Positions 5 to 4,323 of a stretch of DNA of 14,261 nt are shown here, piece after piece. Where the stretch lies: the UHGV virus genome UHGV-0247634, one strand, 5' to 3'. The notes beneath the pieces were generated by a model. That model saw nothing but the letters and a program-made list of their open reading frames with translations. It had not been told where the DNA came from and did no database searches. Made by a program: the position numbers and the translations under genes. This stretch comes from a virus. The number at the start of each line of letters is the position of its first letter. The first letter of the stretch is position 1.

Positions 5-280
5 ATGTTAAGTAACCTTCCCGGATTGCTGAATGTGGCGTTATGCACGGTTATCGTGCTGACGCTCTTTTTTTATCGTCGTCGTGACTCCAGACACAAA
101 CCGCTGATGTCATGGCTGGCCTGGCTGCTGATGCTGCTGTATGCCTTTGCGCCCCTCAGCTATCTGTGTGGTCGCCCGTTAGCAACGGGCTGGCTGGAAG
201 TGTTTTTTAACCTGCTGTTCTGCGTGCTGGTGATACGCGCACGCGGGAACGTCACAAAAATCTTTCCATTGTTGAGGTGA
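5..280 (+). CDS. putative holin (three predicted TM segments); N-terminus may extend beyond window start
   Basis: 91-aa ORF with three hydrophobic stretches (LPGLLNVALCTVIVLTLFFY, LMSWLAWLLMLLYAFAPL, WLEVFFNLLFCVLVI) separated by short basic loops. Stop TGA 278-280 lies in the SD/start region of the downstream peptidase gene, the usual holin-endolysin arrangement. Only 4 nt upstream are visible, so the start cannot be verified. Confidence 0.55.
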   Translation: MLSNLPGLLNVALCTVIVLTLFFYRRRDSRHKPLMSWLAWLLMLLYAFAPLSYLCGRPLATGWLEVFFNLLFCVLVIRARGNVTKIFPLLR

Positions 281-285
281 ATATG

Positions 286-663
286 ATGCCGGGTAAATTC
301 AGATTCAGCCGTCGCAGTGAAAAAAATCTGGAGGGCGTCAAACCACAGCTGGTTGCTGTCGTTCGCCGTGCGCTGGAGCTGACGGAGGTTGATTTTGGTA
401 TCACGGAAGGTCTGCGCAGTAAGTATCGCCAGAAACAGCTGGTAGCGGCAGGGAAAAGCCAGACCATGAACAGCCGCCACCTTACAGGTGATGCGGTGGA
501 TGTTGTGGCCTACATTGGCAGCCAGGTGTCATGGGACTGGCCTCTGTACGAGAAAATCGCGCAGGCATTTAAGCAGGCTGCCGCAGAGCTGGGAACTGCC
601 ATCGAATGGGGCGGGGACTGGAAAACACTGAAAGACGGGCCTCACTTTCAGTTGAAACGCTGA
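286..663 (+). CDS. endolysin, L-alanyl-D-glutamate peptidase (peptidase M15 / VanY-like, T5-endolysin type)
   Basis: Motifs SRHLTGDAVD and GPHFQL match the Zn-binding H-x-x-G-x-A-x-D and C-terminal His motifs of M15 endolysins as I recall them. Start ambiguous: GTG 277, ATG 283 or ATG 286; SD GAGGT at 274-278 favours ATG 286. Positioned between a putative holin and a lipoprotein. Confidence 0.85.
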   Translation: MPGKFRFSRRSEKNLEGVKPQLVAVVRRALELTEVDFGITEGLRSKYRQKQLVAAGKSQTMNSRHLTGDAVDVVAYIGSQVSWDWPLYEKIAQAFKQAAAELGTAIEWGGDWKTLKDGPHFQLKR

Positions 664-677
664 TAACCAGGTGTGTT

Positions 678-860
678 ATGAGCAGAAAACACTGGACACA
701 CAGAATGCCGCGAACGGCGGCGAAATGGGCACTGGTAGCGATACTGGTGCCTTTTTTCCTGGTGGGATGCGTCAGCCTGGATAAGGCGCGCCAGCTTTTC
801 GATACAGCTTCTCAGGTCTGTGAAATTGTCGACGGTGTCCGGCAGTGTATGCAGAACTGA
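678..860 (+). CDS. small secreted lipoprotein, possible o-spanin-like lysis accessory protein
   Basis: 60-aa ORF with a basic n-region (MSRKHWTHRMPRTAAK), hydrophobic h-region (WALVAILVPFFLVG) and lipobox L-V-G-C. Predicted mature peptide is about 30 aa with three Cys. Lies immediately downstream of the endolysin. The ORF-track version from 606 overlaps the endolysin and has no N-terminal signal, so ATG 678 is preferred. Confidence 0.55.
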   Translation: MSRKHWTHRMPRTAAKWALVAILVPFFLVGCVSLDKARQLFDTASQVCEIVDGVRQCMQN

Positions 861-892
861 TCGCCTGATAATTGTTTTACTAAGGAGAAATG

Positions 893-1081
893 ATGGAATC
901 GCCAATTATGAAATATTTCAATTATGAGCATCTTCCGACTTCGTTAAAGGAAGTGAGTAAGCCAATTGGTGATCTGGCAAGAGTAATGGATGAATCTTTG
1001 CCAGACGGTCCGGAAAAGTCGGCTGGGTTACGTAAATTGCTTGAAGCAAAAGATGCTCTGGTGCGAGCGAAACTGGGTTAA
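893..1081 (+). CDS. hypothetical small soluble protein (moron candidate)
   Basis: 62-aa ORF (MESPIMKYFNYEHLP...) with SD AGGAG at 883-887 and ATG 893. About 43% GC by hand count, visibly lower than flanking late genes. No TM segment; C-terminal amphipathic helix-like stretch (LRKLLEAKDALVRAKLG). Followed by a strong hairpin. No family recognised. Confidence 0.45.
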   Translation: MESPIMKYFNYEHLPTSLKEVSKPIGDLARVMDESLPDGPEKSAGLRKLLEAKDALVRAKLG

Positions 1082-1123: not shown

Positions 1124-1330
1124 TTAGTTGTCTTTCATAAATCCTTTAATGACCCATCCCACAAGCCTGGTGATGCTGTACACAAACAAGGCAATTATCA
1201 GAGATACAAGGATATCAAACAGTGAGAATCCTTGCGTATCCGTTGTTGAAAATAAAAGACTAAAGATGAACACCAGAATGGCCAACAGAATACCTACCCG
1301 GTGAAAGCCTTTAGAAATCATGTTTTTCAT
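1124..1330 (-). CDS. hypothetical small membrane protein, two predicted TM helices (antisense moron)
   Basis: 68-aa ORF (MKNMISKGFHRVGILLAILVFIFSLLF...DILVSLIIALFVYSITRLVGWVI...) with two hydrophobic helices and a basic C-terminus. SD GGAGGA is 4 nt upstream of the ATG on the - strand. About 38% GC by hand count. It is the only convincing gene on the - strand, in the position where lambda carries the antisense bor moron. Confidence 0.55.
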   Translation of the reverse strand: MKNMISKGFHRVGILLAILVFIFSLLFSTTDTQGFSLFDILVSLIIALFVYSITRLVGWVIKGFMKDN

Positions 1331-4140: not shown

Positions 4141-4323
4141 ATGTTTCTGATAATTCTCACACCACTGGTTGGCGTGCTGGGGGCGCTTTTGCTGTCGTAT
4201 GGCACATGGCTGATTTATCCCCCGGCAGGTTTTGTTGTTGCCGGGGCGCTGTGCCTGTTCTGGTCGTGGCTGGTTGCTCGTTATCTCGATCGCGGTCAGC
4301 GGGTCGCCTCCGGAGGTGAGTAA
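4141..4323 (+). CDS. hypothetical small membrane protein (two predicted TM helices) between terminase and portal
   Basis: 60-aa ORF ([49 protein letters not shown]...) with GC-rich third-position codon pattern like neighbouring genes. Stop TAA overlaps the portal ATG (TAATG at 4321-4325). No family recognised. Confidence 0.5.

Follow-up and report, generated by a model that had tools for sequence, protein, structure and literature searches.

Lysis cassette of UHGV-0247634

The stretch of virus genome UHGV-0247634 analysed here (14,261 nucleotides; hereafter the window, numbered from its first letter) opens with the distal part of a lysis cassette (5-860) of the type found in the Stx2e phage phiP27. 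The gene under study is the last one of this part (678-860), which encodes a predicted outer-membrane lipoprotein of 60 amino acids (aa) standing where many phages carry the spanin genes Rz/Rz1, i.e. the inner-membrane subunit (i-spanin) and the outer-membrane lipoprotein (o-spanin). Bases 1-1400 of the window share 97-99% identity with phiP27-like E. coli prophages over 80-100% of the query, and phiP27 itself is 95.6% identical over the first 871 bases. In the window and in related prophages, the genes follow the order Phage_holin_8, holin with three transmembrane (TM) segments, M15 endolysin, 60-aa lipoprotein and two small variable open reading frames (ORFs), followed by an HNH endonuclease, a P27-family small terminase, the large terminase and head genes. 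The cassette features, all on the plus strand, are as follows.

1-15: 3′ end (GNVK and stop codon) of a Phage_holin_8-family membrane protein gene, the first gene of the cassette, mostly outside the window
5-280: 3-TM holin, 91 aa; PF05449 Phage_holin_3_7 (E 6e-22) and phrog_217 holin (E 1.5e-38)
277-663: soluble M15 L-alanyl-D-glutamate peptidase endolysin (predicted); Peptidase_M15_4 (E 1.6e-12) and phrog_465 (E 3e-75)
669-673: Shine-Dalgarno-like AGGTG, 4 nt ahead of the lipoprotein start codon
678-860: lipoprotein, 60 aa, MSRKHWTHRMPRTAAKWALVAILVPFFLVGC followed by VSLDKARQLFDTASQVCEIVDGVRQCMQN; lipobox LVGC, predicted lipidation at Cys31
678-767: signal peptide of the lipoprotein (residues 1-30), with a basic n-region, a 13-residue hydrophobic core and the lipobox L-V-G
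768-860: mature lipoprotein of 30 aa, CVSLDKARQLFDTASQVCEIVDGVRQCMQN, and stop codon; phrog_7528 (E 1.3e-38), function unknown

The lipoprotein and its family

The lipobox LVGC precedes a mature part of 30 aa without a single proline, in agreement with the original prediction of a short mature lipoprotein that is not proline-rich, while the three cysteine residues noted then (mature positions 1, 18 and 27) include the one that would be lipidated. Residue +2 is valine and not aspartate (+2/+3 = VS), which, according to the +2 rule, predicts sorting to the outer membrane. These features are shared by the family, where Asp occurs at +2 in none of the 125 lipobox-bearing sequences and nearly all members have V/A followed by S/T at +2/+3. 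The LVGC lipobox is present in 99 of the 125 sequences, the cysteine pattern 0/17/26 in 102, and 109 are free of proline, while a few database members have defects in the lipobox or the reading frame. The two cysteine residues other than the lipidated one (Cys48 and Cys57) are invariant, and the sequence fits an intramolecular loop and intermolecular bonds alike.

The lipoprotein has only one hydrophobic segment (residues 14-32, the signal peptide) and a polar C-terminus (...VRQCMQN). The n-region ahead of this segment is 17 aa long (residues 2-17; positions 681-728), basic and rich in histidine and tryptophan (RKHWTHRMPRTAAKW), and its protein sequence is conserved (RKHWTHRxPRxAAKW, where x represents any amino acid; ratio of nonsynonymous to synonymous substitution rates, dN/dS, 0.14-0.33), including in the second of the two subfamilies described below. 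The n-regions of typical lipoproteins comprise about 5-7 residues, and the precursor or the cleaved signal peptide may have a role of its own. Some members of subfamily 2 contain PRRGAK in this region, but a twin-arginine translocation signal is ruled out, as the E. coli subfamily has R-T, R-V or R-A at that site. The mature part carries a net charge of -1 here and of about -2 to +3 across the family, and its helical hydrophobic moment (~0.5) is only marginally above that of shuffled sequences.

The family is small and confined to Enterobacterales. A word-indexed search of 5.8 billion proteins returned 140 clusters, nearly all from E. coli and none with an informative name, with only a few members from Salmonella, Citrobacter, Cronobacter and Yersinia, and a hidden Markov model (HMM) profile built from the family alignment found 25 matches among 1.84 billion representatives, all of which are the same small family plus noise, with no longer protein or partnered o-spanin among them. 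The members fall into two subfamilies, the E. coli type (...QLFDTASQVCEIVDGVRQC..., C-x8-C) and a Lelliottia-like type (...ARNWFGVAADVCDTVKKIKDRC..., C-x9-C), which are only 31-47% identical to the window protein and both of which occur solo. The only invariant columns are Met1, one leucine of the signal peptide, G30-C31 of the lipobox, C48 and C57. The lipoprotein has no match in Pfam (none at E<=1), NCBIfam or PADLOC, and a sequence search of PDB returned either nothing or designed helical repeats only, while its alignment with an Rz1 by hhalign reached a probability of 0.2%.

Conservation of the gene and its expression signals

The gene at 678-860 is real and under purifying selection. A comparison of 50 distinct nucleotide versions gave dN/dS values of 0.11 (mature part), 0.14 (residues 2-9) and 0.19 (residues 18-31, hydrophobic core), and Arg3 is encoded by four different codons but never substituted. 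As residues 2-9 are under selection and Arg3 is unchanged, ATG 678 is taken as the start codon. The in-frame upstream ATG at 606, which gives the 84-aa form found in some databases, is rejected, as this form overlaps the M15 gene and is impossible in loci with a GH108-type endolysin.

The endolysin stop codon and the lipoprotein start codon are separated by 14 nt, and a plus-strand scan between the two genes detected neither a sigma-70-like promoter nor a terminator. The G+C content (GC) and its value at third codon positions (GC3) are 0.54 and 0.61 for the lipoprotein gene and 0.52-0.55 and 0.60-0.64 for the holin and endolysin genes, while the neighbouring inserts have GC values of 0.38-0.43. 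Within the coding sequence, in the part encoding the hydrophobic core of the signal peptide, lies a terminator-like hairpin with an 11-bp stem followed by TTTTTT (727-752). It is not taken as a terminator, as the region contains just as many such sites as are expected from shuffled sequences.

The annotation of this region in phiP27 is imperfect. In the RefSeq/GenBank record, the wrong-frame ORF L32 (20630-20785; 4097-4252 of our locus L001) is called over the lipoprotein gene and the lipoprotein (20673-20861; L001 4140-4328) has no annotation, while L31 (20136-20351) is another out-of-frame call, which overlaps the endolysin gene at its end.

Gene order in related lysis cassettes

A total of 92 loci carrying the lipoprotein gene were classified, of which four could not be assigned (three with too little upstream sequence, the fourth being a pseudogene in the Stx phage GER2). 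In all 88 classifiable loci, it is situated downstream of an endolysin gene. The endolysin belongs to the M15 type in 58 loci, with a gap of 6-15 bp to the lipoprotein gene in 40 of them, and is a GH108 muramidase in the other 30; in the Yersinia and Lelliottia loci the start of the lipoprotein gene overlaps the end of the endolysin gene, and further Yersinia and Cronobacter loci have the same arrangement. The upstream holins are either a pair from the holin_8 and holin_3_7 families or a lambda-S-type holin, while the packaging module downstream consists of HNH/Terminase_4/large terminase or of Terminase_6 genes.

Proteins encoded between the endolysin and lipoprotein genes in about 40 of the 92 loci are of two kinds, provisionally termed A and B, which are missing in the window and in most M15 loci. 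Both are tiny membrane proteins, A having ~50-60 aa with a C-terminal TM segment (phrog_1115/4493) and B having 44 aa (phrog_4906). Examples are found in loci L029 (3662-3844 and 3862-3996), L087 (2326-2499) and L088 (1630-1782). These uncharacterised proteins might act as accessory factors in lysis.

Comparison of three phages suggests that the lipoprotein and Rz/Rz1 are alternatives in one slot of the cassette, since the genes follow the order S, R, protein A, Rz/Rz1 in GER2 and the order holins, M15 endolysin, one ORF, protein A, lipoprotein in phiSTEC1575-Stx2k, while P88 contains an M15 gene which is 81% identical to the window over 271 bp and is then followed by a canonical overlapped i-/o-spanin pair, consisting of an i-spanin with an N-terminal TM segment and a helical domain and a proline-rich lipoprotein with the lipobox LLTGC. 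In GER2, a copy of the lipoprotein gene persists ~760 bp beyond Rz, which is unannotated and has three in-frame stop codons and a damaged start:

L088 2989-3180 (MG710528 about 46796-46987): decayed lipoprotein copy of GER2, downstream of an intact S-R-Rz/Rz1 cassette

No other copy was found next to an intact Rz/Rz1.

Search for an inner-membrane partner

The original prediction recognised no i-spanin on the plus strand of the window. This finding stands after a scan from all start codons of the 14 kb window, on either strand, and an extension to the complete phiP27 genome and to ~100 related loci with an intact lipoprotein copy, none of which contains an i-spanin. The lipoprotein gene is the sole ORF with a lipobox in the window, and the other ORFs with a single N-terminal TM segment are all out-of-frame or antisense and lie at 7.6-11.7 kb, in the part carrying the structural genes. 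Clustering of the TM-containing ORFs around the lipoprotein gene in 86 loci (2.0 kb upstream and 1.8 kb downstream) revealed no recurrent Rz-like ORF within ~2 kb, the only recurring members being the holins, the lipoprotein itself and proteins A and B.

A comparison with curated spanins, proposed earlier as a check, shows that the gene is already on record. In the 2018 spanin census and its SpaninDB (Kongari et al. 2018, PMC6139136), phiP27 is listed as a 'separated' two-component spanin with a singleton o-spanin, where the o-spanin (20706-20861; 51 aa, of which 30 are mature) is homologous to window 705-860 and the i-spanin (20348-20542, TTG start, 64 aa) has 32 periplasmic residues and no coiled coil. 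With 62 periplasmic residues in total, this pair is cited as the shortest of 528 systems (PMC6139136). The i-spanin of this pair, which would have counted as a refutation of the original prediction, does not withstand comparison. It lies wholly antisense inside a 90-aa minus-strand gene of phiP27, whose match to phrog_36812 covers the full length (E 5e-20), while the 64-aa ORF itself has no family match. Both are located within a 480-bp insertion between the endolysin and lipoprotein genes, which among ~90 loci is restricted to phiP27 and one identical prophage and is missing from the window. Locus L027 encodes an intact homologue (46% identical) of the 90-aa protein, but there all three plus-strand frames are broken by stop codons. 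The census i-spanin is therefore not accepted as a partner and looks like an annotation artefact. Since no other i-spanin is found in the full phiP27 genome, the family would consist of o-spanin-like lipoproteins without an i-spanin.

Two further membrane proteins were noted. In two loci of subfamily 2 (L090 and L091, 2458-3222), the lambda-S-type holin gene has directly upstream of it a gene for a protein of 254 aa, which contains a single TM segment close to the N-terminus and an extended helical region towards the C-terminus. This protein lacks a match in Pfam, does not occur in the other loci and is not taken as a partner. A small conserved gene lies between the large terminase and portal genes of phiP27 (24069-24251, locus L086), annotated as the 60-aa 'membrane protein' L37, with a counterpart in L002 (7138-7320, corresponding by offset only to about 4141-4323 of the window) and in a Yersinia relative. 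The ORF from an internal start in this gene has one strongly hydrophobic segment, but no periplasmic domain, and is thus no i-spanin candidate. Literature searches for orphan or lone o-spanins yielded nothing relevant.

Comparison with known outer-membrane lysis factors

The lipoprotein resembles the o-spanins of the lambda Rz1 type in being a small lipoprotein with predicted outer-membrane localisation, encoded distally in the lysis cassette in the slot of Rz/Rz1, with conserved periplasmic cysteine residues. Its signal also agrees with the lipobox rule for o-spanins (LVGC, Cys31 within the allowed range and no Asp at +2). However, no cognate i-spanin gene, whether embedded, overlapping or nearby, accompanies it in the window, the phiP27 genome or the 86 loci, and its mature part is proline-free, predicted to be helical and, with 30 aa, half as long as the shortest pair of the census. 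A mature part of this length without a partner does not span the periplasm.

The unimolecular spanin gp11 of phage T1 likewise serves the outer-membrane step with a single gene and has an N-terminal lipoprotein signal, but it adds a periplasm-spanning domain and a C-terminal inner-membrane TM segment, whereas the lipoprotein here ends 29 residues past the lipid anchor without a hydrophobic C-terminus. The disruptin gp28 of phage phiKT is a cationic antimicrobial peptide that replaces spanins (bioRxiv 10.1101/515445). It shares with the lipoprotein its shortness, its occurrence in a phage without a spanin complex and outer-membrane disruption without spanning the periplasm (which in the case of the lipoprotein would be its proposed activity). 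It differs in that gp28 is cationic, whereas the lipoprotein is lipid-anchored (predicted), with a family-wide net charge around zero, and its mature part (net charge -1) is no strongly cationic amphipathic peptide.

The colicin lysis or bacteriocin release lipoproteins and entericidin B have mature parts of ~20-35 residues and make the envelope leaky; colicin lysis proteins, some of which have an LVGC lipobox, act by activating outer-membrane phospholipase A (OmpLA). The lipoprotein is similar in size and lipobox to the colicin lysis lipoproteins (PF02402), but has no detectable homology with these families and is encoded in a phage late operon and not in a colicin operon; to our knowledge, the conserved cysteine pair is absent from both the colicin lysis and the entericidin B families. 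Llp of phage T5 and Cor are also small phage-encoded outer-membrane lipoproteins, and Llp has a functionally important disulfide. Their genes adjoin receptor-binding or tail genes and their products act on a specific receptor, whereas the lipoprotein gene travels with endolysins across different packaging modules. Neither linkage to tail or receptor genes nor homology to Llp/Cor was found, the sole PHROG match of the lipoprotein being phrog_7528.

Proposed function and alternative explanations

There is roughly an even chance that the product of 678-860 is a lysis-cassette outer-membrane lipoprotein which stands in the place of Rz/Rz1 and has no cognate inner-membrane partner. Its role in lysis is suggested by the position of the gene, the equivalence to the Rz/Rz1 slot and the one decayed copy beside Rz/Rz1. 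Its autonomy is what we infer from the search for a partner. The original prediction had left three readings side by side, namely a spanin system that is non-canonical, one that is incomplete, and a lipoprotein with another role such as receptor-blocking superinfection exclusion. The first of them is retained here, in view of the occupation of the Rz/Rz1 slot, the combination with different endolysins and holins and the partner search. The cassette is present in phiP27, phiSTEC1575-Stx2k and vB_Apl-pPE4, and as these are deposited as phage genomes, phages with the partnerless cassette are presumably viable.

Under the proposed mechanism, the lipoprotein gene would share a late-operon transcript with the holin and endolysin genes and probably be coupled to them in translation. 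The product would leave the cytoplasm through Sec, receive its lipid at Cys31, be processed by signal peptidase II and, having Val/Ala and not Asp at +2, be delivered by Lol to the outer membrane, in whose inner leaflet it may accumulate as a ~29-residue amphipathic, helix-prone peptide, whose two conserved cysteine residues could form an internal C48-C57 loop or intermolecular disulfides. Once the holin fires and the L-Ala-D-Glu peptidase has removed the murein, the lipoprotein would destabilise the outer membrane and complete lysis, either by direct perturbation, through a host factor that it switches on (OmpLA in the case of colicin lysis lipoproteins) or with the help of a host partner.

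Three kinds of outer-membrane lysis factor precede this one, i.e. two-component spanins, unimolecular spanins and the disruptin. The Cys-x8/9-Cys mini-lipoproteins may represent a fourth, breaching the outer membrane from its inner leaflet without an inner-membrane tether, although this broader proposal is tentative and falls short of an even chance. A more speculative variant is a spanin made of two forms of one gene product, where the uncleaved precursor, held in the inner membrane by its basic n-region, would act as the inner-membrane partner of the mature form, the conserved cysteine residues linking both.

Several points weigh against an autonomous lysis lipoprotein. The evidence for a lysis role is comparative, many of the 92 loci come from E. 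coli prophages that are nearly identical, so that the independent evidence amounts to about seven cassette architectures, and the argument from a pseudogene beside Rz/Rz1 comes from GER2 alone. Unrelated accessory genes also land beside lysis genes, an example being the lipoprotein gene bor of lambda, and we know of no near-uncharged, lipid-anchored peptide of 30 residues that serves as a stand-alone outer-membrane disruptor in phage lysis. There is no homology to Rz1, colicin lysis proteins or any solved structure, and the AlphaFold2 model calculated with the family alignment, one long helix of low confidence (predicted local distance difference test score, pLDDT, 58-68 in the mature part), gives no mechanistic insight. 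An inner-membrane partner that is host-encoded or unconventional is possible.

An accessory, moron-type envelope lipoprotein, acting in receptor-blocking exclusion like T5 Llp or Cor, in the protection of progeny from debris or in fitness or virulence, is unlikely, although the product is small, predicted to be lipidated and equipped with a conserved cysteine pair, and the interval between lysis and packaging genes is an insertion hotspot in phiP27-like prophages. T5 Llp is likewise a small outer-membrane lipoprotein, the mature lipoprotein here having presumably about half the length of mature Llp. The linkage to two endolysin types rather than to tail or receptor-binding genes, with either of two packaging modules downstream, speaks against such a role, as do the placement 6-15 bp from the endolysin gene or overlapping it, the lack of a promoter of its own, a GC3 equal to that of the lysis genes and unlike that of true inserts, and the absence of any match to an exclusion or defence family in PHROGs or PADLOC; the exclusion reading offered earlier is disfavoured on the same grounds. 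A modulator of lysis, which might for instance adjust its timing, shield the outer membrane up to holin triggering or control the endolysin, would also be a constant member of the cassette, its long conserved n-region suggests selection beyond simple export, and new accessory lysis factors are still emerging, e.g. Lcc6 in LambdaSo. This role is nevertheless improbable, as a 30-mer anchored in the outer membrane is far from the holin, the endolysin types vary, and the gene is found at the slot otherwise held by Rz/Rz1 and not in addition to them.

An ordinary o-spanin whose partner has escaped recognition, be it the census ORF, a holin-family protein, protein A or B, or an Rz of the host or a cryptic prophage, would account for the spanin-like pair of periplasmic cysteine residues, and the census both lists phiP27 as a 'separated' two-component system and allows that unconventional topologies could act as i-spanins (PMC6139136). 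Proteins A and B, placed between endolysin and lipoprotein in nearly half of the loci, would be candidates, but A also accompanies a complete Rz/Rz1 in GER2 and neither occurs in the window or in most M15 loci. The holin type differs between loci, the census i-spanin runs antisense to a genuine gene, is confined to one insertion and is not conserved, no protein with an N-terminal TM segment and a periplasmic domain is encoded in the window or in phiP27, and 30 mature residues cannot bridge the periplasm without a long partner. As every candidate varies across loci, this explanation is weakened and is judged rather improbable. Least of all is a functionless relic to be expected, i.e. an o-spanin which survived the loss of its i-spanin, and with it the incomplete system considered in the original prediction: a decayed copy does exist in GER2, and some database members have lipobox or frame defects, but the dN/dS values of 0.11-0.19, the invariant cysteine residues and lipobox, the solo occurrence of two divergent subfamilies and the lack of a detectable relative among partnered o-spanins make it very improbable.

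In the accepted model, disruption of the outer membrane by phages of Gram-negative bacteria needs a complex linking both membranes, the one tested exception being a cationic peptide, and about 13% of the phages in the 2018 census lack a recognisable spanin (PMC6139136). If the lipoprotein completes lysis alone, spanning of the periplasm would be dispensable even for lipoprotein-type factors, and a minimal tool of 30 residues would be available to probe or breach the outer membrane. The gene itself is known from SpaninDB, and what is new is its solo status and the correction of a curated entry, as the 'shortest known spanin pair' of phiP27, quoted as a lower bound with its 62 periplasmic residues, appears to rest on a spurious i-spanin. 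In some relatives the cassette adjoins Stx2e or Stx2k toxin genes, where lysis governs toxin release, and the lipoprotein gene resides in E. coli prophages that are genetically easy to handle.

Holins, endolysin and neighbouring ORFs

The cassette is not confined to 5-860, as first assumed, but begins with the Phage_holin_8 gene upstream, the last residues of which are encoded by bases 1-15. Their translation corresponds to the C-terminus (...GGGGGNVK) of a gene of 130-144 aa in the relatives L001 and L002, which matches PF16931 (E 3.7e-22) and phrog_198 holin. The second holin (5-280) has homologous ORFs which also contain three hydrophobic segments.

The original assignment of the endolysin as an L-Ala-D-Glu peptidase is borne out by its match to PF13539 Peptidase_M15_4 (48 bits, cut-off 25), by its readable zinc-binding motif H-x6-D...H (SRHLTGDAVD ... 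GPHF) and by its closest solved structures, which are the L-Ala-D-Glu peptidases ChiX (5opz, 1.5e-43), 8q2g (3.6e-42) and the T5 endolysin (2mxz, 3e-23), so that cleavage of the L-Ala-D-Glu bond is its predicted specificity. The enzyme has no N-terminal hydrophobic segment and is therefore regarded as soluble and holin-dependent. The ORF opens mechanically at GTG 277, while ATG 283, which is preceded by GAGG and is the annotated start in RefSeq relatives, is the probable true start.

Downstream of the lipoprotein gene are located the two small variable ORFs:

890-1081, plus strand: 63-aa soluble protein, phrog_1761 (unknown function); GC 0.43, low compared with its neighbours
1124-1330, minus strand: 68-aa protein with two TM segments; GC 0.38, low compared with its neighbours

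Neither of them has a match in Pfam, NCBIfam, PADLOC or PDB. Because of their low GC and their presence in only a few of the 86 loci (5-7 for the ORF at 890-1081 and 6-7 for that at 1124-1330), they are considered inserted accessory ORFs. Both are rejected as partners of the lipoprotein, being low in GC, rare among the loci and devoid of a periplasmic domain, and the ORF at 890-1081, which had been proposed for joint expression with the lysis genes, is a variably present insert and no member of the cassette.

In the Actinobacillus phage vB_Apl-pPE4 (PP818812.1), positions 18643-20272 are 93% identical to the lysis region of this E. coli prophage, and KilA-N is among the annotated features under this match. 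The recorded host of this phage, Actinobacillus pleuropneumoniae, is odd for a sequence so similar to that of E. coli.

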